The notes under the pieces were generated by a model. That model did not search any database, was not told the origin of the DNA, and worked only from the letters and a program-made list of their open reading frames with translations. 64,000 bases of DNA. Origin: Planctomycetota bacterium. Its GTDB lineage: Bacteria > Planctomycetota > Phycisphaerae > Sedimentisphaerales > Anaerobacaceae. Below are positions 4,110 to 58,326 of this stretch, one piece after another. Both the position numbers and the translations under genes were made by a program. Each line of letters begins with the position of its first letter. Positions within the stretch are counted from its first letter, which is position 1. The stretch is taken from positions 5,981 to 69,980 of the forward strand of contig JALORE010000023.1 of assembly GCA_025459125.1 (NCBI GenBank). Direction: 5' to 3'.

Positions 4110-4125
4110 GCAAACAACATGCCAG
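4110..4125 (-). promoter_or_regulatory. Putative sigma-54 (-24/-12) promoter, copy A, upstream of the TolC-like gene
   Basis: The minus strand reads CTGGCATGTTGTTTGC, which fits TGGCA(C/T)-N5-TTGC. The GC element lies 33 nt upstream of the GTG start at 4077. Confidence 0.6.
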
Positions 4126-4194
4126 ACGGGCCCGTTTCATCCGGCCTGGGGAGGGCAGGAAACGCCCTCGTTTCAGCCCACGGGGGCTGATTCC

Positions 4195-4233
4195 GTGTCC
4201 GTTTTTGGAACCGGCGCGCCCAAATCCGGACGC
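4195..4233. promoter_or_regulatory. Inverted-repeat candidate enhancer (UAS), copy A
   Basis: GTGTCCG-N25-CGGACGC with a central GGCGCGCC. Its centre is about 91 nt upstream of the -24 GG. Conserved in copies B and C. Confidence 0.5.
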
Positions 4234-4533
4234 ACCGGATGAGCCGATGCGCCGGGGCAGAAACCCGTGGCGGTTTGGGCCAAGACACCCAACGGCACCA
4301 GTTCCACTACTGTGTCCAGCCTGAAATGACGGTCGGCAGCGACAAGGCCGGAGGCCTTGCGCAGGTCGTGCCGCTGGCGGAGGGGCAAACCATCGGCAAG
4401 CTGGCGCTTGCCGCTGCCACCCGGCGGGCCGGGGCATGGAGCGCCACGGGCCCCACTACTGCTCCCACCTGAAGCGGTGAGATCCTCCGCATGGGCTGAA
4501 GCCCATCCTACAATCTACAGTCAGGACGGAGCC

Positions 4534-6102
4534 CTACGGCTCTTGCAGCCGGTAGTTGCACCAGGTGGGAATGTCCCGTGTGAAGTCGAGCGTGCCGCCG
4601 CCCCGGGTCATGAAGACGCCCGGCGTGACCTCCTGGAGTTTCTCGTCGACGGATCGAAAGCTCGCCACCTGCTCGAAGAACTTCGATTCCGTCACGCACA
4701 GAAACCCGTCGTGCTCGCGGACCTGGATGCGCGGCGTGAACTCCTCGCGGCCCCGCAGGATGACCAGCACGTGCGCCCACCATTCGAGCGAGTACTCGCT
4801 GAACCGAAGATTGTGAGTCCCGCAGTACGGCCGCCAGCGGCGGTCGTAGGGCGTCGGCTGGTGCCCGGACCAGCCCCACCAGGCGCCCAGGCCGCTACGG
4901 CCGTCCGGTAGAGGCCGTGGAAACCGTTTCTCGACCAGCCGGCCCTGGACCAGTTTGTCCGTCAGCGTCAGGCCGAGCTCGGTGAGGACGGGGTTCGGCA
5001 GCTTGTTCGTCAGCACCACCGCGCCGAGGCCATATTCGGGATACCAGTGCATCAGCGACAGGAAACCGAATCCCCAGCCGTCGTGCCAGAGCATCTGCTC
5101 GGTCCTTGCGGGCGCGCGTCGGTCCACGTAGACCCCCATGCCGTAGTGAACGTTGGGCTCCGTCTTGGCGATCCCGACCGGCGTGTGGATGGCGTCGATC
5201 AAGGCCCCGTCCAGCACGTTCCGGCCGTCGAGCGTGCCCCGGTTGATGTGCAGTTGGACCAGGCGGGCCATGTCCCGGGCCGAGCTATAGACCCCGGCGG
5301 CCCCGAGAGCCGGGAAGGCAGAGGGCAGCTTCGCAATCCCCGTCATCTGCCCGATTGCCCGCTGGGAGTCCTTCAGGATGGCGCGGGAATCGGCCGTACT
5401 GTGCGACATTCCCAGTGGCGTGAAGAGCTTGCGGGCCAGGTACTGCTCATACGGCTGGCCCGAGACCACCTGGACGATGTACGCAGCCAGATCCGATGCA
5501 GCGCTGCTGTGATAGAAGCTGCTGCCCACGGGACACACCAGCCAACTGCCCCAGAGGCTCTTGACATGCTTCTCGAACGAGGCGGTCGAGGCCGGCTCGA
5601 AGTAGTTGCCTACCGGGACCTCGATGGGAAGTCCGGCCGTGTAGTTGAGCAGGCGCCGCAGGGTGATCTTGCGTTCCGGGTGGTCTTCATAGCGGCTGCG
5701 GATCGTGAAACCCGGCAGATAGGTGGTAACAGGCTCATCCAGCTTCACCAGTCCATCCTGGACCGCCAGCATGACGGCCGTCGCGGTAAGCAGCTTGGTC
5801 AGGCCGCAGAGCATGAAGGGCGTGTCCGGCGTGACCGCCGGCTTCTTCTTGCCGCCGGAATATCCGAATCCTTCCGTCCAGACGATCCCCTTATCATCGA
5901 CGAGTGCCAGCGCCGCACCGGGGATATTGCCCCGGTCCATAATCTCGGGCACCGTGGCACGGAACTCGTCGATGACCGCCTCGATCTTCGGGTCCAGGTC
6001 CGGTCTCTTGTAGCACCCTGTCTGGGGAATCGCGGCCTGCACCGGCCCACCGAAGCCCACCAGAAGTCCCGTCCAGACTGCGACGTCCAGTACCCATCTC
6101 AT
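4534..6102 (-). CDS. Beta-lactamase-fold / serine-hydrolase family protein, apparently lacking the SxxK serine, Sec-exported
   Basis: ORF 4534..6231 with start moved to Met44 (ATG 6102), giving leader 'MRWVLDVAVWTGLLVGFGGPVQA'. Family-typical blocks are 'GAALALVDDKGIVWTEGFGY' and 'LLNYTAGLP'. The SxxK position reads 'CGLTK'. Confidence 0.7.
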   Translation of the reverse strand: MRWVLDVAVWTGLLVGFGGPVQAAIPQTGCYKRPDLDPKIEAVIDEFRATVPEIMDRGNIPGAALALVDDKGIVWTEGFGYSGGKKKPAVTPDTPFMLCGLTKLLTATAVMLAVQDGLVKLDEPVTTYLPGFTIRSRYEDHPERKITLRRLLNYTAGLPIEVPVGNYFEPASTASFEKHVKSLWGSWLVCPVGSSFYHSSAASDLAAYIVQVVSGQPYEQYLARKLFTPLGMSHSTADSRAILKDSQRAIGQMTGIAKLPSAFPALGAAGVYSSARDMARLVQLHINRGTLDGRNVLDGALIDAIHTPVGIAKTEPNVHYGMGVYVDRRAPARTEQMLWHDGWGFGFLSLMHWYPEYGLGAVVLTNKLPNPVLTELGLTLTDKLVQGRLVEKRFPRPLPDGRSGLGAWWGWSGHQPTPYDRRWRPYCGTHNLRFSEYSLEWWAHVLVILRGREEFTPRIQVREHDGFLCVTESKFFEQVASFRSVDEKLQEVTPGVFMTRGGGTLDFTRDIPTWCNYRLQEP

Positions 6103-6246
6103 CGGACACGTCCAGGGCTGGTGCCAAGCACGCGTGGACGGACGCCCAGCGACAAAGCCGGACGAAGGGCCCGCCCGACGTCTCTCATCCCGCCGGGCCG
6201 GGCCCCGGGACTTGCAGTCGCGATTTCTCATCGCGCCATCATCCCA

Positions 6247-8661
6247 CTATTCACACCGAAGTGCAACCATGGGATCGATCCGCGCCGCCCGGCGAGCGGG
6301 AATATAGCATGCCCCGCAGCCGGCGCCGAAGAGCGTTGTCAGCACCACCGCCAGCATGACGGGATCGGCCGGGCCGGTCTTGTACAACAGACTGGCAACG
6401 ATTCGACTCATCGCGAAACCGCCAAACAGACCCAATCCGGCCCCCGCCAGAATCAGCCGTCCTCCCTGATGCAGGACGGTCCGCAAGATCTGCTCGCGCG
6501 TGGCGCCCAGGGCCAGCCGGACGCCGATCTCATGAGTCCGCCGCGCCACGCTGTATTGGAGCAGGCCGTAGAGTCCCAGGGCCGCCACCACCAGAGCGAT
6601 CTGGGCAAACGCACCTACCAGGACGATGGCGAAGCGCCGGGGAGCCAGCAACGGGGAGAGGATCTCCTCAACGGTCCTTATAGGAGAGATCTTCACGTCC
6701 CTGTCCAAATCCAGGATCAGGGCCCGCAGCAAAGGAGCCACCCGCAACGGGTTGCCGTCGGTCTTGACGACCACGTCGACGCACGGCAGGCAGTAGTCTT
6801 CGGTCAGGGGCCAGTAGACGGCCACCAGGTCCGGGTTCAGCTCGCGGTAGTCCTTGAGAGTGCTCACCACGCCCAGGACCGGTCCCCGATCCCAACCGCC
6901 CAAGGTAACTTGCCGCCCAATCGGGTCCTGCCCGGAGAAGTGTCGGCGGGCCAGAAGTTCATCGATAAGGACACCCTGTTTGGTTCCCTGCATGTCCTGC
7001 TCGGCAAAACCGCGGCCTTGGAGAATCCGCATCCCGAGTGTCGAGAGAAAGCTCGGACTAACGATCTGGATGCGCGCCCATGTGTTTCGCTCCGGATCGG
7101 GGGGCCGTCCGTCAATGGTCAAGACCGTGCGGGCCGAGCGCGAGTCGAGGCGCAGGCACGGCGAAATCGCCGCGGCCGAACGAACGTGCGGCAGGGCCTG
7201 TACGCGCTGCAGGAGTTGTCTGACGAACAGCGACGCCTGGGGCCCCCCGCGGGGCCCCTCGGGGTATCTGGCGAGGGGAAGTTCGACCGGCATGACCGCG
7301 ACGTTCTTCGGCACAAAGCCCAGGTCCTCCCTCTGCAACAGGACCAGGCTCTGAACCAACATCCCGATGCCCACCAGCAAAGTCAGCGCGATGGCAATCT
7401 GCACGACCACCAGGCCATGGCACAGGCGCCGCCAGGCGCGATCGATCACCGGGCCCGACGACTCGTCTCTCAAAGTCCGGACCGGACGTACCGCGCCGGC
7501 TCTCCAAGCCGGCAGCAGACCGAAAACCAACGCCACGGTCAGGGACAGTCCGAGTGTGAAACAGAGCACGGTCCCATCGATCCGCGTCGCGCCGACGTGC
7601 GAGACATCCGCGGGGCAAACCGCCACGATTCCTTTGATGATCCAAACGGCGGCCAGAATACCCAACGCCCCGGCCGTCAGACTCAGCATGAGGCTTTCCG
7701 TCAGCAACTGGGCCAGGATACGGCCCCGGGAGGCGCCCAGCGTCACGCGGGTGGCCATTTCTTGCCGGCGCGCGTCCGTCTGCACCAGGAAAAGGCCGGC
7801 CACGTTCATACAGGTGATCAGGAGCACCAGCGCCACCGCACCCCACATGGGGTACAGCAGCTTTCGCTCGGACCCCAGCTGGAGATCCCGCAGACGTTCG
7901 ACGGTGACCTGGTAGCCGGTATAGGCCGGCGGGTCTGCCTGGGCCAGTTGTTGCTGCAGGACAGCCATATCGGCCCGCGCGCGCTCCAGACTCGCCCCGC
8001 GTTTCAGGCGGGCCCATACGACGAGGCGTTCTGCCGTTCGTGTGGGGTCGAGAACGAGGGGCACCCATAAGGCGATCTCCGCTTCCCCGGACGATTCGCG
8101 AAAACCGGCGGGCATCACTCCGACCACCGTGTAATTCTCAGCATCGGCGGTAATGCTCTGGCCGATCGCTCGGGCATCACACCCCAGATGGTCGCGCCAG
8201 AAGGCATGACTGGCCACCACCACGTGTCGGCGCTCCGGCTGCTCTTCTCCCGGCAAGAATCCCCGGCCGAGCTGGGGCAGCACACCCACCAGAGAGAAGA
8301 AACAGGGCGATACCGCCTTGGTCGAAACTTGAAATGGTTCTCCCAGTCCGGTGAGGCTCATCCGGCGCCCGGCCTGGCCGGCCATATGACCGAACACGTG
8401 GTTGTGCTCACGCCAGTGGATAAACGTCCGGTAGGAAAGATCTCGGAACCGCGGCGGGTCGTTCTTGCGCTCCTCGACTTCGACAATCCTGCCCGGGTCG
8501 TGGTAAGGCAGTGCTTCCAGCACCACGGTATTGACGACACTGAAGACCGCCGTGTTCGCGCCGATGCCGATCGATAGAATCGCCACGACCACCAGGGCAA
8601 AGCCGGGATTCCGCGCCAGCAGCCGCAAGCCGTAACGCACATCCCGCCACAGCGTTCTCAT
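6247..8661 (-). CDS. ADOP-family duplicated FtsX/MacB-type ABC permease (804 aa)
   Basis: N-terminus 'MRTLWRDVRYGLRLLARNPGF' plus TM1. Two FtsX-type modules ('LLITCMNVAGLFL', 'THEIGVRLALGA'). C-terminus '[16 protein letters not shown]'. Confidence 0.9.
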   Translation of the reverse strand: MRTLWRDVRYGLRLLARNPGFALVVVAILSIGIGANTAVFSVVNTVVLEALPYHDPGRIVEVEERKNDPPRFRDLSYRTFIHWREHNHVFGHMAGQAGRRMSLTGLGEPFQVSTKAVSPCFFSLVGVLPQLGRGFLPGEEQPERRHVVVASHAFWRDHLGCDARAIGQSITADAENYTVVGVMPAGFRESSGEAEIALWVPLVLDPTRTAERLVVWARLKRGASLERARADMAVLQQQLAQADPPAYTGYQVTVERLRDLQLGSERKLLYPMWGAVALVLLITCMNVAGLFLVQTDARRQEMATRVTLGASRGRILAQLLTESLMLSLTAGALGILAAVWIIKGIVAVCPADVSHVGATRIDGTVLCFTLGLSLTVALVFGLLPAWRAGAVRPVRTLRDESSGPVIDRAWRRLCHGLVVVQIAIALTLLVGIGMLVQSLVLLQREDLGFVPKNVAVMPVELPLARYPEGPRGGPQASLFVRQLLQRVQALPHVRSAAAISPCLRLDSRSARTVLTIDGRPPDPERNTWARIQIVSPSFLSTLGMRILQGRGFAEQDMQGTKQGVLIDELLARRHFSGQDPIGRQVTLGGWDRGPVLGVVSTLKDYRELNPDLVAVYWPLTEDYCLPCVDVVVKTDGNPLRVAPLLRALILDLDRDVKISPIRTVEEILSPLLAPRRFAIVLVGAFAQIALVVAALGLYGLLQYSVARRTHEIGVRLALGATREQILRTVLHQGGRLILAGAGLGLFGGFAMSRIVASLLYKTGPADPVMLAVVLTTLFGAGCGACYIPARRAARIDPMVALRCE

Positions 8662-8670
8662 CGACCTTTC

Positions 8671-11166
8671 CTATTCGTGTCGCAGCGCCGCCATGGGATC
8701 GATCCTGGCAGCCCGATAGGCCGGCACGGAGCAGGCCAGCAGCGCGACCATACCCAGCAGCAAAGCAGTCAAGACAAACGTCACGGGGTCGGTGGGTGTC
8801 GTTTCGAAAAGCTGGCTGCGCAGAACCCGCGTCAGGGCCCATGCGACCGCCAGGCCGGCGCCCATACCCACCGCCGCCAGGATCATGCCTTCCCGCAGCA
8901 CCAGGGCCAGCACATGCCCGCGCCGGGCTCCCAGAGCCATCCGGATTCCGATCTCCTGCACCCGGCGGGTCACGCTGTAGGCGGTCACGGCGTACAGGCC
9001 CACCAGCGCCAGGACCGTGGCCAGAGCGCCGAAGAGACTCGCCAGAAAGCCAACCAGCCGCTCGCCGGCCAGGATTCGGTCCAACCGATCGCCCATCGTC
9101 ATCATGTCCACGACGGGAATGCTGGCATCCAGTTGGCGCACGTGCGCACGGATGGCGTGAAAGACCTGCGCGGAGGCCAGGCTCGTCCGCACGTAGATGG
9201 CCATGCTGGACAGGCCGATCTGTGGATAGGGCACAAACACCTGCGGCTCAGCCGCCCGGCGGGGCCCGGCGGGCCGGGCATCCCCCACCACGCCGACGAT
9301 TTCCCGGTCCGGCTGGGCATCGGCACTCCAGCGAAAACCCACCTGGTATCCCAGGGGATTGCGACCGTCGAAGAACCACTGCACGAAGGCCTCATTGACG
9401 AGCAGCACCTGTCGCGCCCCGGGCAACTCGTCCTGCGCGGTGAAATCGCGGCCCAGTTTCAAGGACATGCCCAGAACCTGGCGGTAATCGCGTGAGATGG
9501 TGTCACAGTAGGCGCGGACGTCCTCACCCTCCCGGGGCTGGTATCCTTCGACCACAATCCCATTGACCAGGCGTGAGCTTCCCAGCAGCGACGTCTGCGC
9601 CAGGGCCACCGACTCAACGCCCGGTACCGACTGTAGTTGCGTCCGCAGGCGCTGCCAGAAAGCAGAAGTGCGCTGCCCGTCGTACCCGCTCAGCCCCGGA
9701 TTCACGTGGAACGAGACCAGATTGGTGGTCCGAAAGCCGGGATCGACACGGTACAGTGCCACGAGGCTGCGCAGGAGCAACCCGGAGCCGATCAACAGGA
9801 CCAACGACAGTCCCACCTGCAACGCGACCAGGGCCTGCCGCAGACGCGTGCCGGAACCTCCGACCACCGCGGCGGCCTGGTCCTTGAGGGTACCGACCAG
9901 ATCGACTCGTGTCGCCCACCAGGCCGGAAACAGGCCAAACAAGAGGGCCGCCGCCGCCGACACTGCAAGGTTGAAGGCCAGCATACGTCCGTTGAGGGCA
10001 GGAGACAGCGCCGCTTTCAACGGCCCCGAGGCGAACAACAGAATGCCATGGGTCGTCCAGAAGGCAATCGCCAAAGCTGCCAGTCCTCCCCCGGCCGCCA
10101 AGAGCAGGCTCTCCGCCAGCACCTGACGGAAGATCCGCCCGCGCCCGGCTCCCAGCGCCAGCCGGACTGTGATCTCCTTCTGGCGGCTCATGGCACGCGC
10201 GATGAGCAGGCTCGAGGCGCTCGCGCACGCGGCCACCAGGACCAGGGCAGCCAGTCCCATGAGCAGATGGAGCGTGGGCCTCAGGTTGGAGGACAGATCC
10301 GAGGCGCCCCGGCCCGCCGGGAGCAGCAGCGTCCGTGATTGAAGAAACTGCTCGCGATCCGGCGCCGGCACATCCGCGAATTCGGGGCTCTGGGCCTCCC
10401 CCTCGATGAGCTGCCGATAGCGGGCCTGGACCGCCGCGGCCGCCTGCGCCAGGGAAAGACCCGGTGGTAGTCGGCCAAAGACCTGCACCCACCGATTCTT
10501 GCGGTCGTCCAGTGAACGCCAGGACGGGGTGATCTGCTTCTTCATGGTGACGGGGAGGAACACCTTGGGCCGGGCATCCAGGCTGACCCCGCGGAAATTC
10601 GCCGCGGCCACCCCGACGACGACCGTGGGCACACCATTGACGAGCAGCGTGCGGCCGAGGACGGCCCGGTCCCCGCCAAAGCGGTTCTGCCAGAACTCAT
10701 GGCTCAAGACAGCCACCGGCTGGGCGTCCGAGACCGCCTCATCGGCGGCGATGAACGTGCGCCCCAGGACCGGCCGGACCCCGAGTACCTCAAAGTAGCT
10801 CGCCGAGACCAGCTCGATTTCGATGCGTTCGGCCCCCCGGCCGTCATCCACGGCCGCGGTTTCGCCCCGCCGGCAGAAAACCCCCTCGAACAAGGCCGTG
10901 CTCGCCTGGAAGTCCTGGAACATGGGATAGGAAAGTGTGGTGCTGCCCCACGCGGTACCGATGGACCGCCCCTGGGTCCGCACCAGGACCAGGGCCCCCG
11001 GATCCCGGACAGGCAGTGAACGCAGGAGGACCTGCTCAAAGATGGTGAAGATCCCGGTGTTGGCCCCGATCCCCAGCGCGAGTGTCAACACCACCGCGGC
11101 GGTGAAACCGGGCCGCCGGCCCAGACTGCAAAGCCCATACCGTATGTCGTGCCAGAACGTCCTCAT
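8671..11166 (-). CDS. ADOP-family duplicated FtsX/MacB-type ABC permease (831 aa), directly downstream of an ABC ATPase
   Basis: ORF 8671..11553. Start set at the family-typical 'MRTFWHDIRYGL' (ATG 11166, preceded by GGGAG). An alternative ATG at 11256 overlaps the ATPase stop (ATGA) but would translate the intergenic repeat. C-terminus 'AYRAARIDPMAALRHE'. Confidence 0.85.
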   Translation of the reverse strand: MRTFWHDIRYGLCSLGRRPGFTAAVVLTLALGIGANTGIFTIFEQVLLRSLPVRDPGALVLVRTQGRSIGTAWGSTTLSYPMFQDFQASTALFEGVFCRRGETAAVDDGRGAERIEIELVSASYFEVLGVRPVLGRTFIAADEAVSDAQPVAVLSHEFWQNRFGGDRAVLGRTLLVNGVPTVVVGVAAANFRGVSLDARPKVFLPVTMKKQITPSWRSLDDRKNRWVQVFGRLPPGLSLAQAAAAVQARYRQLIEGEAQSPEFADVPAPDREQFLQSRTLLLPAGRGASDLSSNLRPTLHLLMGLAALVLVAACASASSLLIARAMSRQKEITVRLALGAGRGRIFRQVLAESLLLAAGGGLAALAIAFWTTHGILLFASGPLKAALSPALNGRMLAFNLAVSAAAALLFGLFPAWWATRVDLVGTLKDQAAAVVGGSGTRLRQALVALQVGLSLVLLIGSGLLLRSLVALYRVDPGFRTTNLVSFHVNPGLSGYDGQRTSAFWQRLRTQLQSVPGVESVALAQTSLLGSSRLVNGIVVEGYQPREGEDVRAYCDTISRDYRQVLGMSLKLGRDFTAQDELPGARQVLLVNEAFVQWFFDGRNPLGYQVGFRWSADAQPDREIVGVVGDARPAGPRRAAEPQVFVPYPQIGLSSMAIYVRTSLASAQVFHAIRAHVRQLDASIPVVDMMTMGDRLDRILAGERLVGFLASLFGALATVLALVGLYAVTAYSVTRRVQEIGIRMALGARRGHVLALVLREGMILAAVGMGAGLAVAWALTRVLRSQLFETTPTDPVTFVLTALLLGMVALLACSVPAYRAARIDPMAALRHE

Positions 11167-11252
11167 CGGATAGCTCCCGCTCACAGTTGTCAGTTGGCAG
11201 TTCCCAGTGCCTCCGGCCTTCGCGATCTTGCCGGCAACTGTCAACTGATAAC
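11167..11252 (-). repeat. Q-type intergenic hairpin element (CAGTTG/CAACTG repeats)
   Basis: 'cagttgtcagttggcagttcccagtg' faces 'ttgccggcaactgtcaactg'. Same family as 17002, 25489, 38324, 46010 and 57214. Confidence 0.65.
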
Positions 11253-11918
11253 TCATGCCTTCTGCATCCACCCGTCGCGGAGCTTGATGATCCGCTTGCT
11301 GTAGGCGGCATACTTGTCGTTGTGAGTGACCTGGATGATGGTGGTACCCTCGCGGTTGAGCTTCTTGAACAGGTCCATGATCGCTTCGCCCTGGCTGGAG
11401 TGCAGGTTGCCGGTCGGCTCGTCCGCCAAGAGGAGCTTGGGGTTGGCGATGACCGCCCGCGCGACGCCGACCAACTGCTGCTGGCCGCCGGAGAGCTGGC
11501 TGGGGAACAGGTCCTTCTTGCCCACGATGCCGAAGCGGTCCAGCGTGTCGCAAACCATCGAGGCCCGCTCGGAACCCTTGATGTTCCGGTAGGATAGCGG
11601 CACATCCAGGTTCTCATAGACCGTCAGAGTGTCGAGCAGGTTGAAGTTCTGGAACACAAAGCCGATGTACTGCTTGTTCAGGGCCAGACGCTCCTTGGGC
11701 TTGAGGGTGTGGACCGCGTGGTCGTAGAGGTAGTACTCCCCTTCCCAGTCGCCGTCGAGCATGCCGAGGATGTTGAGCAGCGTGGTTTTGCCCGCCGCCG
11801 AGGGTCCCATGAAGGTGACGAAGTCGCCCTCCTCGATGTCCAGGTTGATCTGCCGCAGGACGTAATTCTTGCCCGCCCGCGTTTCGTAGCATTTCTCGAT
11901 GTTTCTCAGTCGAATCAT
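11253..11918 (-). CDS. ABC transporter ATP-binding protein, MacB/LolD-type, stand-alone (221 aa)
   Basis: Walker A 'GPSAAGKTTLL', signature 'LSGGQQQ', Walker B 'LLLADEPTGNLH', H-loop 'VTHN'. Confidence 0.92.
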   Translation of the reverse strand: MIRLRNIEKCYETRAGKNYVLRQINLDIEEGDFVTFMGPSAAGKTTLLNILGMLDGDWEGEYYLYDHAVHTLKPKERLALNKQYIGFVFQNFNLLDTLTVYENLDVPLSYRNIKGSERASMVCDTLDRFGIVGKKDLFPSQLSGGQQQLVGVARAVIANPKLLLADEPTGNLHSSQGEAIMDLFKKLNREGTTIIQVTHNDKYAAYSKRIIKLRDGWMQKA

Positions 11919-11948
11919 AGTACAGTTCCCGGTCTCCAGTTCTCAATT

Positions 11949-12016
11949 GTAGGGTGGGCTGTGCCCACCGATCACGTCACATACGCGCCAGGCATGGTGG
12001 GCCCAGCCCACCCTAC
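11949..12016. repeat. REPIN-like palindrome (P-type, G variant)
   Basis: GTAGGGTGGGCTGTGCCCACC (11949..11969) faces GGTGGGCCCAGCCCACCCTAC (11996..12016). Each arm is GTAG plus its own short hairpin. Confidence 0.8.
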
Positions 12017-12067
12017 GAGATCCTCTCCACTCATCATTCCAACATTCCGTACTCCATTATCCCAATC

Positions 12068-14509: not shown

Positions 14510-14525
14510 GGCATCACTCCAGTTT

Positions 14526-14591
14526 GTAGGGTGTGCTGTGCACACCACAATTCCATCCGCCGTGGGCCCTGGTGCGCACAGCACACCCTGC
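14526..14591. repeat. REPIN-like palindrome (P-type)
   Basis: GTAGGGTGTGCTGTGCACACC ... GGTGCGCACAGCACACCCTGC. Confidence 0.8.
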
Positions 14592-14604
14592 GTCTGTCAA
14601 CTCC

Positions 14605-17956: not shown

Positions 17957-17965
17957 GGTCCTCTC

Positions 17966-20350: not shown

Positions 20351-20364
20351 CTTCATTCTCCCGT

Positions 20365-20440: not shown

Positions 20441-20463
20441 GTCTGTTCTCCATCACGCCCTTC

Positions 20464-43433: not shown

Positions 43434-43449
43434 GGCACCACTCCAATTC

Positions 43450-46009: not shown

Positions 46010-46097
46010 GGCCGGACTCCAGTTCTCAGTTCCCAGTCGTCAGTTCGCAGTCGTCAGTCACCAGCTCTCTTGCGGCCCACTGTGGACTGTTAACTCC
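46010..46097 (-). repeat. Q-type intergenic hairpin element
   Basis: 'actccagttctcagttcccagtcgtcagttcgcagtcgtcagt ... ccactgtggactgttaactcc'. Confidence 0.65.
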
Positions 46098-48599: not shown

Positions 48600-48616
48600 T
48601 GCACTGTCTCCAGTTC

Positions 48617-48678
48617 GTAGGGTGTGCTGTGCCCACCAATTCCAAAGATCGAGTTGTGGCGTGCACAGCACACGCTAC
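48617..48678. repeat. REPIN-like palindrome (P-type) overlapping the stop codon of the upstream gene
   Basis: GTAGGGTGTGCTGTGCCCACC ... GGCGTGCACAGCACACGCTAC. The TAG stop of the 48675 gene (48675..48677) lies inside the right arm. Confidence 0.85.
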
Positions 48679-51206: not shown

Positions 51207-51290
51207 TTGTTCTACCTCCCGTTTCCCTCACACGTGTCTCAACGACTCTGTTGGATCAGCTTGATAGACGCCGCAAGGTGCGAATAGCAG

Positions 51291-51839
51291 TCACACCTCC
51301 CAGCCTGGGCGGTACGTCCGGCCGACATACTGATTGATCTGGGGCTCATTCGCACACTCTCGTTTCTGCACGTTCCACCGAAGCTTCCGGCCTACGCCGG
51401 CGCAGGCCGCCAGATGACCGGTCATGATCCGCTCGGTGAGCCGGCCGGACGTGGTGGGGAAGTCACTCGTGAGGGGGCCTCCCTTCTCGATCGCGTCGAA
51501 GAGCTCGCCGAGCGCGCTGCCGGTCCGCGGCAGCGTTTTCGGCCGCGGCGGGCACTCCCGGTGTTTCTGTATGGGCAAGATGCGTGTGTCGAGACAAGAG
51601 GAGCCGGAATACATGTAGCCTCTGTCACCGATGAAGATGGATCCCACCCTACTGGGCGGCTGCAATTCGCTGCGCAACTTCCTCAGGGATTCCGGCATAT
51701 CCTCGGCTTCTTCATACGCATACACCTTCACCGGTGGCATCGCGCCCCGCGCCGGGAACTCCCGCCGCAAGACCATGTTCAAGCAATACAGTTCCTCACT
51801 GCCCCCCTGGAGGAATTGCCTGCGTGAATGTGTGCGCAT
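51291..51839 (-). pseudogene. Truncated Gfo/Idh/MocA-family oxidoreductase (Tat-like leader fused to the C-terminal domain; Rossmann domain missing)
   Basis: 182 aa. The leader is 'MRTHSRRQFLQGG'. The family-typical C-terminal end is 'LTERIMTGHLAACAGVGRKLRWNVQKRECANEPQINQYVGRTYRPGWEV'. No N-terminal NAD-binding GxGxxG region is present. Confidence 0.5.
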
Positions 51840-51851
51840 TGGAGTTCTCCT

Positions 51852-54611
51852 CTACGGGAACCGGTACACGTACCCACTGTCGCTTCGTTTGCGGATCCAC
51901 TCCATGAACGCCGCCGGATGAATGATCTTGGCACCGCTTGGATGGACATGGGCCGACGCCAAGAGCGACTCTTTCATCTGTGCCGGCGTCAGGTCCGGAC
52001 GGATCTGCCAGCCCAAGGCCAGGATACCGGCGGCATAGGGGATGGTATCGCTGTATCCCGCCTTGGACCGCGGTTGGCGGCTGCGCCGGCCCCCGCCGTC
52101 GTAGGCATAGCCCAACCGCCAGCCCTCCTCGGCCTGGGCGACGGTTCGCGGCGCGGATGGCACATGGATATGCCCCTGGTCGACCTCGACCGGCCCGTTG
52201 CGGAAACCCGGGGTGCAGGCCTCGACACTTTCTCGATTCTGCGGGTCCAACCAGCAGAGGGATACAAAGCCGTGGTGCCAAGTGCAGTCCAGCACCAGGA
52301 TGCCTTGGTCCTGGGCCCGCTGTACGGCCTCGTCCCAGAGAGACTGGTTCTTATACACCGATCCCTCGCCCGAGGGTTGGGACGATACCGATACGACCCG
52401 GATCCTTTGCTCTTTCGGCGTGCCCTCATTGTACGTGACGAACCCGTCCAGGGCCCGGGCATAATAACCGGCATCCGCCTCCCAGGAGGGAACGGCCACC
52501 ACGTGCAGGCTGGCCCCCGGGGCGGTGCCACACCGCGTGCCCACCAATTGGCTGGCCATAGCGGGTCCGTGTCCACTGCTTTTGTGCGGGCCGCAACCGG
52601 CGTCGTGGTACGAGACAATCTTGCCGGCGTACTCCGGGTGATCCAGCAGGAGCGGCTGATCGATCAGCCCCACATGGACGCCTGCCCCGGTGATCCCCTG
52701 GGCCTGCAAAGCCCGGACCCCGAGCCCCGGATTCATGCCCTCCTGCAACAGCGCCTGCGGATCGAATCCCGTGGGCAAGCGTTCCGCCGGAGGCCACTGG
52801 GTATCCTGATTGAATTCGAGGGTATCCAGAATATCGCCGGCGGAGCGCAGGTCCAACGCGCGCAGATCCTTGCCACCTACATCGGCATACGCCTCGAGAC
52901 CCTCGCGACGATCCGCCCGGGGACTGTCCGTCTTATCGAGTTGTGCCGGGCCAACGTTGATCTCCAGCACCGTGCCATCATTCTTGCTGATTTCAAAGGA
53001 GAGATTCTGGTCTTCGTAGGTAAGAATGTCTTTGGTCGCAAACTTGCTGAGCTGGAAGTCATTACTGAAGACTTGTTTGATCTCTTCCACCGGGTCACCC
53101 ACTCCCAAGCCGCCGGCGAATCGGTAGGCAGGACTGAGCACCGTGATCCCGATGATGGCATCGTCATCGATCCCAAACGCGAGATCCTCGTACGACATGG
53201 TATACCGCTTCGGGAGATTGTCCCGAGCATACGTCTCTGGCCCCCAATGAACCCATCTTGGCTCTCCCAGCTTCTTCACCAGCTCGTCTTTACTCATGCC
53301 AAATGGGTAGTCGCCTACGCGCACTCCAGGCACGATGGTTTGAGTTTCAGAATTTATCGGCAGAGGCGACCGTACGGTGCGACGCTCACTGGGCGGGCGG
53401 TTCAATGTTGCGGTCTCACCGGCTTGAATCGCACGAATCAACCGGACAGGATCAACGATGGGTCCGAGGGGCCTGGTCATCCCACGGCGCTTCAGTTCGA
53501 TAGTACGCCCGGTTTGCACGGCCAGGGCCCAGAACTTCTCCGGGGTGATCGCAGGATCCACCTGCGCGGCCAGAGCATACACCCCGGCGATGTAAGGGAC
53601 AGCCCAACTGTAACCACCGTTTCGGTAAAAAACGTATTCGCGGATACCGCCGGGGCTGGCGGCGGTGCGCGAGTCCATCGGTACCGAGAAACACATTCCT
53701 AAAGGTGGGGACGGACGGGACCAGAAATCTCTGGCCCGAAACAGGCCCGGTGCATAGGATTCGAATACGTCCGGATCCGCCAAAGGCGAACGATCCAGCG
53801 CGTCGAAGTCGCATCCCTCATGGACCTGTCCGACAGTCGTGCACACAATCAACATGCCGGCCGCCAGTGCTTTCTGTACCGCTTTGGCAATGTCCTCATA
53901 GCCCTCGCGCGACGGCCCCCAACCGGTCGACATGGAGAGGACTCGGATCTTGTTGTCGGGCGGGAGCTGCGCGTTGACTTCGATGATTCGGTGGATACAT
54001 CGAGCCTGGCGCGGCAGAGGGCTTCCGCCCGGCCGGGCGATATAATAGAGCTCGGCCCCCGGAGCGACGCCGACGGTTTTGCCCAGGGCAATCGAGGCGA
54101 CGGCCGCCCCGTGCATCTGCGGCCCACTGTGGCTGGGCACATCGATTTCCTCGTAGAAACGGACACGGTCGGCATACTCCTGGTGGTCAACCAACAGACG
54201 TTGATCGATGATGGCAATCTTCACTCCGCGGCCGGTGATTCCTTCCTCGTGCAAACGGCGGACGCCCAAGCCGGGGTTCTTCCCCAACTCCATGATCTTG
54301 CGCCAATCGAAGCCAGCGGGCATCCGCTCGGGAGCCGGCCAGACCGTCCCGTCATCGAAGTGCGCATACAGGAGATCCTCGAGCGCCGCGCGCAAATCGA
54401 GCTTCGACACGTCCCGGCCCCGCAAATCGACCTGGAAGGGATTGTCCGAATTGGGGTCGTATTTCGGGATGGTTGTCCACTCCCGAGGAGCTTCTTTCCC
54501 AGCGGGCGTGATGCTATGCTTCGCCGGCACCTGTGGATTGGCCTGCACGTCGTGAGAGCCGGCCAGCGGCATTCCGACCAAGATCAGTAATGCTGCTGTC
54601 CCTCGACTCAT
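51852..54611 (-). CDS. Exported S8 (subtilisin-like) serine peptidase with two tandem catalytic modules
   Basis: ORF 51852..54674 with start moved to signal peptide 'MSRGTAALLILVGMPLAGSHDVQA' (ATG 54611). Module 1 has 'VKIAIIDQ', 'HGAAVASI', 'GGYSWAVPYIAG'. Module 2 has 'VHVGLIDQ', 'GHGPAMASQ', 'AGYSDTIPYAAG'. Confidence 0.8.
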   Translation of the reverse strand: MSRGTAALLILVGMPLAGSHDVQANPQVPAKHSITPAGKEAPREWTTIPKYDPNSDNPFQVDLRGRDVSKLDLRAALEDLLYAHFDDGTVWPAPERMPAGFDWRKIMELGKNPGLGVRRLHEEGITGRGVKIAIIDQRLLVDHQEYADRVRFYEEIDVPSHSGPQMHGAAVASIALGKTVGVAPGAELYYIARPGGSPLPRQARCIHRIIEVNAQLPPDNKIRVLSMSTGWGPSREGYEDIAKAVQKALAAGMLIVCTTVGQVHEGCDFDALDRSPLADPDVFESYAPGLFRARDFWSRPSPPLGMCFSVPMDSRTAASPGGIREYVFYRNGGYSWAVPYIAGVYALAAQVDPAITPEKFWALAVQTGRTIELKRRGMTRPLGPIVDPVRLIRAIQAGETATLNRPPSERRTVRSPLPINSETQTIVPGVRVGDYPFGMSKDELVKKLGEPRWVHWGPETYARDNLPKRYTMSYEDLAFGIDDDAIIGITVLSPAYRFAGGLGVGDPVEEIKQVFSNDFQLSKFATKDILTYEDQNLSFEISKNDGTVLEINVGPAQLDKTDSPRADRREGLEAYADVGGKDLRALDLRSAGDILDTLEFNQDTQWPPAERLPTGFDPQALLQEGMNPGLGVRALQAQGITGAGVHVGLIDQPLLLDHPEYAGKIVSYHDAGCGPHKSSGHGPAMASQLVGTRCGTAPGASLHVVAVPSWEADAGYYARALDGFVTYNEGTPKEQRIRVVSVSSQPSGEGSVYKNQSLWDEAVQRAQDQGILVLDCTWHHGFVSLCWLDPQNRESVEACTPGFRNGPVEVDQGHIHVPSAPRTVAQAEEGWRLGYAYDGGGRRSRQPRSKAGYSDTIPYAAGILALGWQIRPDLTPAQMKESLLASAHVHPSGAKIIHPAAFMEWIRKRSDSGYVYRFP

Positions 54612-54684
54612 GGCTTGTTCCCTGCGATGGAGGCGACTGGAAACGCAGAACCACAACTCAGGTAATACCGGCATACTATTCTAC

Positions 54685-57213
54685 TCACTCGCATCTCAAG
54701 GCTCTCATCGGATCGATCTTCGCGGCCCGGCGGGCGGGCAGCCAGCAGGCGAGCAGGGACACGCCCAGCAGCAGCAGCGAGACGCCGCCAAACGTCAGCG
54801 GGTCGGTCGCGGTGACGCCGTACAGCAGGCTCGCGACCAGCCGCGTCACGGCCAGGGCCGCCCCCACGCCGATCGCAAGACCGAGCAGGACCAGCTTCAA
54901 TCCCTGCCGGATCACGAGGGCGACCACGTCCCGGCGGCGGGCTCCCAGGGCCATGCGGACCCCGATCTCCGGTGTCCGGCGGACCACTCCGTAGGACAGG
55001 ATGCCGTACAGACCCAGACAAGCCAACACCAGAGCCAGCAGGCTGAAGGACCCGGCCAGGCTGGACAACGAGCGTTCCCGGAACAAGTGATCGTCGAGCA
55101 TGGCGTGCATCGTCTGCAGGCCGGTCACCTCGACGCTGGGGTCCAGCTCGCGCACAATCTGCCGGATGCCGTCCGCAACGGTCAGAGGGTTGCCCAACGT
55201 CCTGACGTAGAGGTAGGGCAAGACCCGTCCCTGGGTCCCCACGAGACTATAGACGGAAGCTCTTGGGCCGCCGCGCAATCTCTTGTAGATCACGTCCTTG
55301 ACCACCCCGATGACCTCGAGAAACGGCCCGGATTCGCCCGCCTGCAGGAGTTGCCCCACGGGATCTTCCCGGCCAAAGAGCGTTCGGGCGTTCGTCTCAT
55401 CCAGGATCACCGGACGCGCCGCCTGGCCGGACTGACCGACGGAGGCCGCCGCTTCGTCCTGCGGCCCGAAGCTCCGCCCGCGCAGCACCGGGATCCCCAT
55501 GGTCTCGAAGTACCGCACGGTAACGCCGGTGCCACGCACTTCCAGGCCTTCTTCGGCGCCGAAGTCGCGACCGATCCGAACCACCCGGTTCGGCCCCCAC
55601 CCCCACTCGCTGCCACTCACGGGCTGGATGCTGGCACAACCAACGGACCGCACACTCGACAGGCCCTCGACACGCCGAAGAACCTCCTGGTAAACGCTGC
55701 CGCGGCGCGCCTCGTCATAGCCCTTGCCCCAATCGAGCTCGAACGCCAGGAGATGCTCCCGGTCGAACCCCGTATCCAGCGACTTGAGTTTCTGCACGGT
55801 CCGCACAAACAGGCCGGCCCCGATCAGCAGGCAACACGACACGGCGATTTGGGAGACCACGAGCGCTTTGTTCCAGAAGTGCCTGGGCGCGCCGTCCCCG
55901 GGGCCCGTCCGATCCTTGAGTGTGGTGGTCAGGTTGAGACGACTGCCTTGCCAAGCCGGGAGCAGCCCGAAAAGCATTCCGGCCCAAGCAGAAGCAAAGA
56001 AGGTGAACACCAGGATGCGCAGATCCAGCGCCAGATCGAGCCGAACGGCCGCGCCGAACCGAGGAATCGTATAGTGGGCCAGCAACGGAGCGCCCCACCG
56101 CGCGACGAGCAGGCCCAACGCCCCTCCCAGTGCCGCCAGCAGCAGACTCTCCGTCGCGAGTTGCCGAATCAGGGCCCAGCGGCTTGCACCGAGGGCGGCA
56201 CGCACGCCGAACTCGCGCCGACGCGCTGCGCCGCGCGCCAGGAGAAGCCCAGCCAGATTGGCGCACGCGACCAGTAAAACCAGGCCGACCATCGCCATGA
56301 GGATCAGGAGCGGCCGTTGGAGCCCCCAGCCCATGTCGGAATACCCCGCCCCGCCGGCAGCCAGCGCGATCCTCACCTTCGGAACATCCTGCTTCTGCTT
56401 CTCCGACCCGCGGCGGGCGAACCGAGCGTTCAAGTCGCTAAGCCACCGCTGAAAACCGACGTCCAATTCGGCACGCGCCTGTTCCGCGCCCACTCCGGGC
56501 CTCAGACGCCCCATAATGCGTAGCCACTGGCTGGTGGGATTGTCAAAATCCTGCTCTTGAACTGATCTGTTCACGAGCGGGGTCGCCTGAAGGGGCAGCC
56601 ACAGATCGGGGTAGCTTCCCACGATGAATCCCGTGAATCCGCGGGGAGTCACGCCGACGATGGTCACGGCGGTGTTCTCCAGCCGGATGGTTCTGCCGAC
56701 GATCGCCGGTTCCAGGCCGAAACGCCGTTGCCAGAATCCGTAGCTGATGACAGCGACCGCCTCCGCAACGCCCCGGCGATCATCCTCCGGCGTCAGTGCC
56801 CGGCCGAGAAGGACAGGTGCCCCCAGGACATCGAAGAAATTCCCCGAAACCGCCTGAACACCCACGCGCCCCGGCTCGCCGCCCTGGGCCCAATCCGCAC
56901 TCATGCTGTACCGATCCATGGAGCTCGCCGCCAGCAGACCGGAGAACGACTGACTGTCCTCGCACCACTGGCGATACGTCACATAAGAAAAGCTCGAATA
57001 TCGGTTGTGGGACGAATCCATGATGGCCACGACGGCGAGTTGTTGTGGATCCTTCACCGGCAGCGACTTCCACAGCAAGGTCTCAATCAGGGTGAAGATC
57101 GCCGTGTTGGCGCCGATGCCGAGCGCCAGCGTGAGCACCGCCACCGCCGTGAAACCGGGACTCTTCACCAGCACGCGGACGCCGTAGCGGAGATCTTGCC
57201 ACCAAGCCGTCAT
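54685..57213 (-). CDS. ADOP-family duplicated FtsX/MacB-type ABC permease (842 aa), long-N-domain subfamily
   Basis: N-terminus 'MTAWWQDLRYGVRVLVKSPGF', C-terminus 'ARRAAKIDPMRALRCE'. Confidence 0.9.
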   Translation of the reverse strand: MTAWWQDLRYGVRVLVKSPGFTAVAVLTLALGIGANTAIFTLIETLLWKSLPVKDPQQLAVVAIMDSSHNRYSSFSYVTYRQWCEDSQSFSGLLAASSMDRYSMSADWAQGGEPGRVGVQAVSGNFFDVLGAPVLLGRALTPEDDRRGVAEAVAVISYGFWQRRFGLEPAIVGRTIRLENTAVTIVGVTPRGFTGFIVGSYPDLWLPLQATPLVNRSVQEQDFDNPTSQWLRIMGRLRPGVGAEQARAELDVGFQRWLSDLNARFARRGSEKQKQDVPKVRIALAAGGAGYSDMGWGLQRPLLILMAMVGLVLLVACANLAGLLLARGAARRREFGVRAALGASRWALIRQLATESLLLAALGGALGLLVARWGAPLLAHYTIPRFGAAVRLDLALDLRILVFTFFASAWAGMLFGLLPAWQGSRLNLTTTLKDRTGPGDGAPRHFWNKALVVSQIAVSCCLLIGAGLFVRTVQKLKSLDTGFDREHLLAFELDWGKGYDEARRGSVYQEVLRRVEGLSSVRSVGCASIQPVSGSEWGWGPNRVVRIGRDFGAEEGLEVRGTGVTVRYFETMGIPVLRGRSFGPQDEAAASVGQSGQAARPVILDETNARTLFGREDPVGQLLQAGESGPFLEVIGVVKDVIYKRLRGGPRASVYSLVGTQGRVLPYLYVRTLGNPLTVADGIRQIVRELDPSVEVTGLQTMHAMLDDHLFRERSLSSLAGSFSLLALVLACLGLYGILSYGVVRRTPEIGVRMALGARRRDVVALVIRQGLKLVLLGLAIGVGAALAVTRLVASLLYGVTATDPLTFGGVSLLLLGVSLLACWLPARRAAKIDPMRALRCE

Positions 57214-57311
57214 TGCAGGACTCCAGTTCTCAGTTGTCAGTGGCCAGTTCTCGGTTGGGTGCCATCAGTGCTCTTGCTGTCGACTGCCAACTGTGAGCCG
57301 TCAACTTCGTC
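57214..57311 (-). repeat. Q-type intergenic hairpin element
   Basis: 'actccagttctcagttgtcagtggccagttctcggttggg ... cttgctgtcgactgccaactgtgagccgtcaact'. Confidence 0.65.
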
Positions 57312-58154
57312 TTATTCATATCGCAACGCCACCATCGGATCGATCCGCATCGCCCGGCAGGCGGGCAGCAGGCAGGCCAGCAGCGACACGGCCGCGATCA
57401 GCAGGGGGACCAGGACAAAGGTCACCGGGTCAATTGCACTGACACCATGCAGGTAACTGGACAGGAAGCGCGTCAAGCCGAGCGCGCCGGCCAAGCCGAC
57501 CGCCGAGCCAAGGAGCGACAGCACCAGCCCCTGCTTCAGGATCAGCGTCAGGTTCGTCGCCCGGCGGGCGGGCGCACTGCAAGCCACGACCGAGGCGGCA
57601 CTCCGCAGCAACGCCGCACGGCCAATCGTCGGACCATCCGTGGGCTCATACCGGAACGACGGGAACTCGAGATCCACCGCCGGCATGTGGTGGGGGTCGT
57701 AGCCGGGGTCGATACGCAGCCGGTTGGCGAAGGTCCGGACGCCCAGACGGGCCCCGACGATCAGGAGGAAAGCCAACGCGATTTGGGAGGCCGCCAGCAA
57801 CGAATGCATCCACCGCGTCGGCCGTCCGGTCGTCGCGTGTCTCGCATCCCCCCGGAAGGCGGCGGAAAGCTCCGTTCCCCAGGCCTGTACGGCCGGGATC
57901 AGACTGAAGGCGGTTCCCGTCGCCAAGGCCACTGCACCGGCAAACGCCAGGGCGGCCACATCGAGGTGTATGCCTCCGACCACGGGCATGAACTTCAGGA
58001 CCGGGGGTCGCACCAAGGCGCCCTGGATCACGCTGAAGATCGTCGTCGCCGCGCCAATGCCCAGGCCCGGGCACAGAACCGCGGTCACCGTCCAGCCGGG
58101 GTTCCGGCGCAGCACTCGCATGCCATTTCGCACATCCTGCCCGAGCATTCCCAT
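57312..58154 (-). CDS. ADOP remnant (280 aa): multiply deleted but in-frame copy, first ORF behind sigma-54 promoter C
   Basis: 'MGMLGQDVRNGMRVLRRNPGW' (ATG 58154, SD AGGAGA) ... 'ACRAMRIDPMVALRYE'. It retains TM1, the end of the first FtsX module, TM5, and TM7-TM8. The rest of track ORF 57312..59378 is an antisense or out-of-frame artefact. Confidence 0.55.
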   Translation of the reverse strand: MGMLGQDVRNGMRVLRRNPGWTVTAVLCPGLGIGAATTIFSVIQGALVRPPVLKFMPVVGGIHLDVAALAFAGAVALATGTAFSLIPAVQAWGTELSAAFRGDARHATTGRPTRWMHSLLAASQIALAFLLIVGARLGVRTFANRLRIDPGYDPHHMPAVDLEFPSFRYEPTDGPTIGRAALLRSAASVVACSAPARRATNLTLILKQGLVLSLLGSAVGLAGALGLTRFLSSYLHGVSAIDPVTFVLVPLLIAAVSLLACLLPACRAMRIDPMVALRYE

Positions 58155-58191
58155 GGGTTTCTCCTGCGTGTACCTCGGCATTCGAGGCCCA

Positions 58192-58208
58192 TGCAAACGC
58201 TGTGCCAG
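58192..58208 (-). promoter_or_regulatory. Putative sigma-54 (-24/-12) promoter, copy C (best consensus match)
   Basis: The minus strand reads CTGGCACAGCGTTTGCA, i.e. TGGCAC-N5-TTGCA. The GC element lies 39 nt upstream of ATG 58154. Confidence 0.65.
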
Positions 58209-58287
58209 GTGCGTTCTGCCCCGGTCGCCGCTCGGAAGGCCCTGGACAAGGGGCCTGCCTGATCTGGGAAGATTGCGGTCGCCTCCC

Positions 58288-58326
58288 GTGTCCGGTTTTG
58301 AAATCCGCGCGCCCGAATTCGGACAC
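58288..58326. promoter_or_regulatory. Inverted-repeat candidate enhancer (UAS), copy C
   Basis: GTGTCCG-N25-CGGACAC with a central CGCGCGCC. Its centre is about 101 nt upstream of the -24 GG. Confidence 0.5.

Follow-up and report, generated by a model that had tools for sequence, protein, structure and literature searches.

How the genes of a large efflux permease array are controlled together is the question raised by a 64-kb stretch of planctomycete DNA (contig JALORE010000023.1; the whole stretch is referred to here as the window). Its minus strand is an almost uninterrupted co-directional array with about 19 ADOP-type duplicated FtsX permeases, some of them fragmented, together with a TolC-like outer-membrane factor, a membrane fusion protein (MFP) and ABC ATPases. 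Arrays of ADOP permeases, whose function is unknown, belong to the largest families of paralogues in bacteria from soil and water (PMC3914696). Full-text literature searches turned up no published regulator or promoter for ADOP clusters. The analysis described here indicates that three sites in the window are very probably genuine sigma-54 (−24/−12) promoters, each with a single 37-bp upstream activator sequence (UAS), and it points to an NtrC-family response regulator encoded at the end of the window as their candidate activator.

Three probable sigma-54 promoters paired with upstream palindromes

A sequence-only reading of the window had proposed three minus-strand sigma-54-like sites, 33–65 nt upstream of gene starts and each preceded by a 39-nt inverted repeat, and both elements were confirmed at their proposed positions (Table 1). 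The promoter pattern TGGCAY-N5-TTGCW (TGGCAYNNNNNTTGCW) occurs exactly three times in the window, compared with a mean of 0.15 matches in 100 dinucleotide-preserving shuffles, none of which reaches three. All three matches are intergenic, lie on the minus strand and stand directly 5' of the starts of the TolC-like gene, the MFP gene and the first ADOP-like gene of a distal block, at distances of 33, 65 and 38 nt, respectively, as had been claimed. The genes that follow the three promoters are referred to below as units 1, 2 and 3. When the scan was relaxed to require only GG-N10-GC, with ranking by agreement with the consensus, the same three sites stood alone on top, each agreeing at 11 of 12 consensus positions, and the −24 GG and −12 GC are exactly 10 nt apart in every case. 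Neither the pattern search nor the relaxed scan found a further sigma-54 match anywhere in the window. Two weaker minus-strand GG-N10-GC matches, at 25461 and 57186, begin 12 nt inside ADOP open reading frames (starts 25488 and 57213) and look like coding coincidences, the first translating as WQDLR.

If transcription begins about 12 nt past the C of the GC element, the predicted starts would lie near 4098, 37076 and 58181, leaving leaders of about 21, 53 and 27 nt. Ribosome-binding sites are visible on direct reading at units 1 and 3: in unit 1, a GAGG sequence is followed 7 nt later by the GTG start codon at 4077, and the 27-nt predicted leader of promoter 3 contains AGGAG.

The palindromic sites are equally restricted in their distribution. 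A profile built from 23 copies of the UAS and run over the whole window returned only the three inverted repeats (E = 2e-13 to 1e-11), with no weaker copies in any other part of the 64 kb, including the other intergenic gaps. The distance from the UAS centre to the T of TGG is 90, 97 and 100 nt for sites 1, 2 and 3. The pattern GTCCG-N25-CGGAC has one more exact match, at 10976, but this falls within an ADOP gene, shows no other feature of the site, and is regarded as a chance occurrence. Across the relatives described below, the conserved determinant is TGTYCG-N5-GGG-N9-CCC-N5-CGGWCA, which consists of the outer hexamers and an inner GGG/CCC pair, and the four conserved patches of the 37-bp site are spaced about one helical turn.

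Alignment of the three upstream regions revealed that conservation is restricted to the palindrome and the −24/−12 elements, in agreement with the earlier description of diverged spacers beside conserved palindrome and promoter positions. Similarity among the spacers does not exceed that of shuffled sequence, as 36, 247 and 31 of 300 shuffles reach the observed scores. Common descent of the three spacers is thus unsupported, and descent of the modules from a common ancestral copy, as the term paralogous would imply, is not established by sequences whose spacers lack significant similarity.

Conservation of the module in other genomes

One genome per species (GTDB) was scanned with GTCCG-NN-TT-N-GGGCGCG-N13-CGGAC, and the 57 loci retrieved (retrieved loci carry L-numbers) fall into two classes. 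The first comprises about 21 sites from about 20 metagenome-assembled genomes of Planctomycetota, which share the extended consensus TGTCCGGATTTGGGCGCGCCGATCCCAAAACCGGACA. Every one of these sites with enough downstream DNA is followed, 62–138 nt away, by a GG-N10-GC promoter near TGGCAC-N5-TTGCW, in one fixed orientation relative to the asymmetric palindrome centre. The first downstream gene is a TolC orthologue in four loci (L008, L010, L023, and L045), an MFP-ABC-ADOP series in nine (the unit 2 order follows the module in L015, L018, L031, L051, and others), and an ADOP gene in six (L012, L030, L033, L036, L037, and L058), the same three kinds as head the units of the window. Orthologues of the regulator and kinase discussed below (60–90% identity) are encoded directly upstream of the module in L012, L025, L030, L043, L051, and L053, and the kinase orthologue alone is visible there in L033, L037, and L049. 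The second class, about 35 loci in other phyla (mostly Actinomycetes and Chloroflexi), was rejected: none has the promoter, many share one recurring sequence reading ESGFGREGG, and no efflux context was found in the nine loci checked by blastx. The module, judged by these contexts, is a conserved cis-regulatory unit and not a dispersed repeat; the possibility that it would turn out to be a generic repeat away from gene starts did not materialize, as efflux gene starts always follow it.

Because a palindrome-seeded scan is biased towards the palindrome, loci were also fetched by the MFP protein alone, through alignment against metagenome contigs. This retrieval yielded two groups: 25 loci with 59–77% identity (group 1), and about 55 loci from soil metagenomes with 44–48% identity (group 2; L084–L138). 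In group 1, the promoter is present in all 18 loci in which the MFP gene follows a kinase gene, another non-permease gene, or an ADOP gene with a gap of at least about 170 nt, and a recognisable UAS lies 68–136 nt upstream of the promoter in nearly all of them. The other seven loci have neither promoter nor UAS within 400 nt upstream of the MFP gene; here an ADOP gene ends about 80–140 nt or less before it, the flank of L070 being unassigned, and in L072 and L081 the module is found further upstream in the locus. Regulator and kinase genes lie upstream in seven of the loci retrieved in this way (L069, L071, L075, L076, L078, L080, and L083), and the kinase gene alone is visible in four more (L073, L074, L079, and L082).

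Group 2 represents a second lineage, presumably Acidobacteriota, as judged from the soil origin of the samples and the ADOP family itself. It keeps the 37-bp geometry, as in TGTTCG-CTCGT-GGG-ACGATTTTT-CCC-ATTTT-CGGTCA, and its sites agree with 15–18 of 18 consensus positions, compared with a shuffle maximum of 14. In nearly all of about 50 loci, a GG-N10-GC element is located 89–93 nt from the UAS centre and 35–49 nt from the ATG. The earlier description of the palindrome as carrying a GGCGCGCC core therefore stands for the palindrome itself and not for the core as a conserved determinant: the GGCGCGCC centre is specific to Planctomycetota, ACGATTTTT-like sequence takes its place in the second lineage, and the core is best described, from this comparison, as a lineage-specific spacer. 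In 29 of 44 non-redundant group 2 modules, an IHF-like TAANNNNYTGAAW sits about halfway between UAS and promoter, 51–52 nt downstream of the UAS centre. No match to the IHF consensus was found in the Planctomycetota spacers; several of them have a GCGTTTT-like tract near the middle. Regulator homologues are also encoded in five second-lineage loci (L087, L101, L104, L126, and L136). Altogether, about 90 loci of other organisms share the paired UAS–promoter arrangement.

The position of the promoter relative to the MFP gene differs between the window and its relatives. In Planctomycetota relatives (L015, L018, L031, L036, L049, L051, L053, L056, and L059–L083), the T of TGG lies 27–29 nt before the ATG of the MFP gene, so that the predicted start falls about 2 nt before the ATG and the sigma-54 transcript would be effectively leaderless; the MFP genes of L018 and L056 have no alternative start codon. 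Site 2 of the window is an exception, with the T of TGG 79 nt from the MFP start, and carries a copy of the TolC-type promoter sequence.

The regulator and its kinase

The sequence-only reading had presupposed an enhancer-binding protein, and a candidate is encoded in the window beside a histidine kinase; the orthologous pair (56–90% identity over both retrievals) adjoins the module in many genomes. The window cuts the N-terminus of the regulator, and the full protein is found on L001, a metagenome contig with the same sequence as the corresponding end of the window. It consists of 457 residues and has the domain order of the NtrC family, a receiver followed by an AAA+ domain with a sigma-54 contact loop and a Fis-type helix-turn-helix (HTH_8). 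Against the models for NtrC, ZraR, AtoC, and the PEP-CTERM regulator PrsR, the regulator scores 372–378 bits, which is under every curated equivalog cutoff (503–760), so by these scores the protein belongs to the NtrC family and is orthologous to none of the named activators. Among solved structures, Aquifex NtrC-family proteins (4l4u and 1ny5) and ZraR (1ojl) are closest to it.

The receiver motif around the acceptor aspartate is kept in all regulator orthologues, including that of the second-lineage locus L087, and their recognition helix (LGLSRxALYRRL) hardly varies. In the window regulator and in all orthologues, again including L087, the sigma-54 contact loop has the form GAFTDA. GAFTDA is among the variants that keep activator function according to a study of the Desulfovibrio regulome (PMC4641369).

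The kinase has two transmembrane helices by hydropathy (residues 6–28 and 36–55), with a loop of about 7 residues between them and about 150 residues from the second helix to the kinase core. This N-terminal topology is kept in 15 orthologues. A gene for a 143-residue protein on the opposite strand (61114–61545, plus strand; L001:3615–4046) lies between the kinase gene and a gene for a protein with an HZS_alpha-type domain, and thereby separates the two-component operon from the genes downstream. Pfam gave no match for this protein, nor for two small neighbouring genes on L001.

Profile and promoter scans detected neither a UAS nor a sigma-54 site 5' of the regulator gene on L001, and autoregulation of the window regulator through such elements was set aside. 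A sigma-54-like site, TGGTATAATAATTGCA (TGGTAT-N5-TTGCA), is located about 105 nt 5' of the regulator gene in another locus (L025:4972), and hints at autoregulation there.

Proposed mechanism of activation

The sequence elements themselves are direct observations, as are their statistical excess, their conservation, their fixed orientation, the genes around them, and their joint occurrence with the regulator pair in different genomes. In the mechanism that they suggest, the membrane histidine kinase would phosphorylate the NtrC-family response regulator, and the activated regulator would assemble on the nested palindrome TGTCCG-N5-GGG-N9-CCC-N5-CGGACA through its four contact patches. The DNA would then loop over the intervening ~90–100 bp, allowing the regulator to reach the RNA polymerase–sigma-54 closed complex at the promoter, and ATP hydrolysis by the regulator would open the promoter. 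The genes switched on would together supply a MacAB-TolC-like tripartite pump, with the outer-membrane duct from unit 1, the adaptor, an ATPase and an ADOP permease battery from unit 2, and a further ADOP battery from unit 3. Binding by this regulator and DNA looping, like the start positions and the extents of the transcripts, are deduced from the sequence.

Several observations weigh against this picture. The regulator falls under all NCBIfam equivalog cutoffs, so that a binding site cannot be taken over from a characterised orthologue, and neither the window nor contig L001 contains rpoN. None of the three window copies has an intact right inner element of the palindrome (TCC, TCG, and TTC, compared with CCC), and the 97-nt spacing of site 2 is out of step with those of sites 1 and 3 (90 and 100 nt). 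Evidence for helical phasing in the family as a whole is no more than suggestive (p ~0.014–0.018 with unique values, uncorrected), and the raw Rayleigh signal at 11–11.5 bp is driven by a related cluster at 99–103 nt spacing. A consensus search found no IHF-like site in the GC-rich window spacers; a site for IHF or another bending protein between UAS and promoter is common in such systems and is not obligatory. Units 2 and 3, at 32.5 and 20.6 kb, would be very long for single transcripts, and several of the ADOP genes within the proposed units are fragmented. As for the sigma factor, the evidence is indirect: the sigma-54 activator encoded here is intact and conserved, and rpoN is present in the planctomycete R. 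baltica (RB6491; PMC2754498), planctomycetes being known to carry this gene.

Extent of the transcription units

Three units over 55 kb is the simplest reading and is not demonstrated, and a single transcript for unit 2 in particular is presumed. It is quite possible, if not the expected outcome, that more than three transcription units exist, with sigma-54 driving the promoter-proximal genes, and with internal promoters or processing in the ADOP gaps of about 70–150 nt serving the rest. Besides the unusual lengths of units 2 and 3, at least ten gaps of 68–152 nt hold strong hairpin elements. Set against this, all genes of the units are co-directional, many junctions measure only 3–38 nt, and no additional sigma-54 match or UAS lies anywhere in the window. 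Sigma-70-like sites are not in excess (2, 0, and 2, compared with 2.3–3.3 expected) in a scan that does not cover planctomycete housekeeping promoters, a limit that leaves room for internal starts. Terminator-like sites are not in excess either, and none was found in the ADOP–ADOP gaps examined. Unit 1 is probably the TolC-like gene alone, because a 419-nt palindrome-filled gap follows it, and because L023, the sole relative with enough flanking sequence, has no window-like genes after TolC.

Other roles for the palindrome

It is improbable that the promoters are real and the palindrome is bound by another protein, either a repressor or a different enhancer-binding protein, with the adjacent two-component system controlling something else. 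Such a binder would accord with the lack of equivalog status of the regulator noted above, and in most second-lineage loci the 3 kb preceding the module contain no regulator gene. In Acidobacteria, moreover, PadR-type regulators often accompany ADOP genes. The window genes that were scanned include no PadR or TetR gene, however, and the regulator–kinase pair directly precedes the module in many independent genomes of Planctomycetota. The recognition helix of the regulator is conserved in step with the site. The palindrome also lies 90–100 nt upstream of a −24/−12 promoter in a fixed orientation, which is the position of an activator site and not that of an operator. Activation by the adjacent regulator is therefore preferred over binding by another protein.

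That the palindrome acts instead as an RNA hairpin, terminating or stabilising the 3' end of the upstream transcript, or that it is a REP-like dispersed repeat, is very unlikely. The inverted repeat does lie downstream of the stop codon of the preceding gene, and the genome is rich in intergenic hairpin repeats. The UAS is present, however, in only three copies in 64 kb and in none of many other intergenic gaps, and its orientation and distance to the promoter are fixed. Its stem would have only 6–7 bp closing a loop of about 25 nt, there is no T-run, and Rfam gave no match in the window. The second-lineage form TGTTCG...CGGTCA breaks a base pair without compensation, which indicates conservation as sequence and not as pairing.

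Chance co-occurrence of GC-rich motifs, which could draw on the 65% G+C content of the window and on a modest enrichment of one-mismatch GTCCG-N25-CGGAC (13 matches, compared with 7 expected), is rejected by the comparative data, with some 90 conserved loci elsewhere beside the excess of promoter matches and profile E-values that reach 1e-12.

Comparison with known systems

The arrangement proposed here, promoters served by the adjacent NtrC-type regulator, resembles NtrB-NtrC at glnAp2 and the Aquifex NtrC1 and NtrC4 proteins in having a receiver, an AAA+ domain and a Fis-type HTH, with the kinase gene beside that of the regulator, and resembles glnAp2 in the dyad-symmetric sites about 100 bp upstream of a −24/−12 promoter. 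It differs from the NtrC system in several respects. The window regulator scores 378 bits, compared with an NtrC cutoff of 559, its contact loop reads GAFTDA instead of GAFTGA, and its kinase is membrane-anchored; its predicted targets are efflux genes instead of nitrogen assimilation genes, and each promoter has a single 37-bp nested palindrome instead of several 17-bp sites. AtoC of E. coli, likewise an NtrC-family response regulator, binds upstream of atoDAEB a 40-bp inverted palindrome made up of two 20-bp sites, a long enhancer of about the same size as those of the window. The best NCBIfam match of the window kinase is AtoS, and AtoC is among the top matches of the regulator, but the scores are far under the cutoffs (90 vs. 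646 bits for the kinase and 372 vs. 714 for the regulator), and the targets and the site sequence are unrelated. ZraS-ZraR likewise includes a sigma-54 regulator, one that responds to envelope stress, and ZraR is the second-best NCBIfam match (374 bits) as well as a close solved relative; however, that score stands against a cutoff of 760, the regulon is different, and ZraS has a periplasmic sensor domain, whereas the window kinase exposes only its ~7-residue loop.

In BceRS-BceAB of Firmicutes, a transporter of the MacB superfamily is coupled to an intramembrane-sensing kinase (PMC5985334). The window resembles this system in having two-component genes beside FtsX/MacB-type (Type VII ABC) permeases, and in a two-helix kinase with almost no external loop. 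BceR is of the OmpR type, and BceS, a minimal kinase, lacks a cytoplasmic sensor domain. In the window, the regulator is instead of the NtrC type, the kinase has a weak PAS match, and the pump, with its adaptor and TolC-like duct, is a tripartite one. The Bce-like topology of the kinase is consequently a lead and not a demonstrated parallel. Because the kinase has no periplasmic sensor domain, it might sense the working state of the ADOP/MacB-type pumps, much as BceS senses BceAB, and feed a sigma-54 enhancer, acting as a transporter-coupled flux sensor in double-membraned bacteria; this idea, drawn from the analogy, is speculative and rather doubtful. If it were true, an entire battery of interchangeable permease paralogues would answer to the flux sensor, and Planctomycetota and the second soil lineage would both carry a single cassette made up of regulator, kinase, 37-bp site, promoters, and pump genes.

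A 42-kb ADOP cluster has been described in Psychroflexus torquis as a tandem paralogue array with other transporter parts (PMC3914696). The window cluster is likewise a large tandem paralogue array with other transporter parts, but belongs to a planctomycete and is under predicted sigma-54 control. No paper linking ADOP/MacB-type clusters or planctomycete activators to the motif was found; the in silico study of Pirellula enhancer-binding proteins by Studholme and Dixon (2004), the only one on planctomycete activators, which might predict some of the promoters, lies outside the scope of this search. The regulatory logic of sigma-54 and an NtrC-type activator is textbook, and what is new is the regulon and not the mechanism: a duct, an adaptor with its ATPase, and two ADOP batteries that appear to be under common control in Planctomycetota, through a site whose geometry recurs in a second lineage. 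The ADOP cluster thereby gains a regulatory handle, namely a 37-bp consensus site, a candidate activator–kinase pair, and three predicted starts, through which the inducing signal, and thereby the pump substrates, become experimentally approachable. With the site motif as a guide, the regulon can likewise be mapped in whichever complete genomes of these phyla are at hand.

Genes and intergenic elements of the window

The genes downstream of the three modules are listed with the regulatory elements in Table 1. Together they encode all components of a tripartite efflux system: ADOP permeases, a separate ABC ATPase, an HlyD-type adaptor, and an outer-membrane factor of the OEP family. The ADOP permeases score 808–889 bits against TIGR03434 (cutoff 622), the ATPase of the window is closest to DarD, MacB, and LolD, and the TolC-like protein matches the NCBIfam TolC-family model under the cutoff of that model.

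Table 1. Regulatory elements and genes identified in the 64-kb window.
Feature	Position	Strand	Basis or remarks
Sigma-54 promoter 1, TGGCATGTTGTTTGCT	4109..4124	-	GG 4123/4122, GC 4111/4110; direct reading and scans
Sigma-54 promoter 2, TGGCATGTTGTTTGCT	37087..37102	-	Identical to promoter 1 over 16 nt
Sigma-54 promoter 3, TGGCACAGCGTTTGCA	58192..58207	-	Full consensus match
UAS 1, CGTCCG-GATTT-GGG-CGCGCCGGT-TCC-AAAAA-CGGACA	4196..4232	-	5' of TolC-like gene; profile E = 1.1e-12
UAS 2, TGTCCG-GATTT-GGG-CGCGCCGGT-TCG-GAAAG-CGGACA	37181..37217	-	5' of MFP gene; profile E = 9.7e-12
UAS 3, TGTCCG-AATTC-GGG-CGCGCGGAT-TTC-AAAAC-CGGACA	58289..58325	-	Profile E = 2.2e-13
Unit 1, TolC-like outer-membrane factor	2443..4077	-	Pfam OEP, E = 3e-39
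Unit 2	4534..37023	-	MFP, ABC ATPase, ~12 ADOP genes, beta-lactamase-fold gene, in this order; Pfam, NCBIfam
MFP (HlyD-type adaptor), unit 2	35761-37023	-	
ABC ATPase, unit 2	34925-35761	-	
~12 ADOP permease genes, some broken, unit 2	6247-34841	-	
Second ATPase, unit 2	11253-11918	-	
Beta-lactamase-fold gene, unit 2	4534-6231	-	
Unit 3	37559..58154	-	Truncated ADOP-like permease first, ADOP fragment last; Pfam, NCBIfam
Truncated ADOP-like permease, first gene of unit 3	57312-58154	-	
S8 peptidase, unit 3	51852-54674	-	
ADOP fragment, end of unit 3	37559-38323	-	
HZS_alpha-type domain protein, 888 residues	58406..61072	-	Pfam; between the two-component genes and UAS 3
Sensor histidine kinase	61558..62880	-	Pfam; weak PAS match (E = 8e-4) and catalytic domain
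NtrC-family sigma-54 enhancer-binding response regulator	62977..64000 (window cuts N-terminus)	-	Sigma54_activat, E = 3e-64, and HTH_8

In unit 3, the truncated permease is followed by ADOP genes, the S8 peptidase gene, a gene for a 182-residue protein without assigned function, five ADOP genes, and the ADOP fragment. The truncated permease (280 residues) combines an ADOP N-terminus with a C-terminal FtsX domain and has no periplasmic domain. ADOP genes are truncated or split over overlapping frames at 17099–17956, 30567–34841, 37559–38323, and 57312–58154, and these are either pseudogenes or assembly errors. The gene for the serine hydrolase with a beta-lactamase fold at the end of unit 2 is also the last gene before the next UAS in L015, L023, and L056 (67–69% identity), and appears from this recurrence to be a regular member of the efflux cluster. 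Orthologues of the HZS_alpha-domain protein are encoded upstream of the module in L036, L037, and L064. The promoter scans found no sigma-54 site before the HZS_alpha-domain gene, and nothing was found that would place it in the regulon.

The intergenic gaps of the window hold several kinds of hairpin. A GC-rich hairpin stands directly after the stop codon of the gene upstream of UAS 3. One recurrent type, located between ADOP genes and built of short tandem words (...CAGTTGGCAGTTGCCAGC...AACTGAGAACTGGCAACTGAGAACTGGAGTCC), occurs at 17002–17098, 25489–25586, 38324–38475, 46010–46097, and 57214–57311; the same type is inserted between UAS and promoter in L018 and L056, and accounts for the 133–136 nt spacing there. 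A second class consists of GGAAT-rich heptad repeats (GACTGGAATGATGGAATACTGGAATATTGGAATAATGGG) and is found at 22876–22989, 28005–28072, 11919–12067, and 30473–30566, and the gap between the regulator and kinase genes (62881–62976) contains a hairpin of AAATCAT heptads. REP-like palindromes, GTAGGATGGGCT(T/C)CAGCCCAT..., follow the beta-lactamase-fold gene at about 4480–4530 and recur in the ADOP gaps at 11960–12040 and 38360–38440. A different set of palindromes fills the gap between the TolC-like gene and a sulfatase gene (2024–2442), with a folding energy of −218 kcal/mol.

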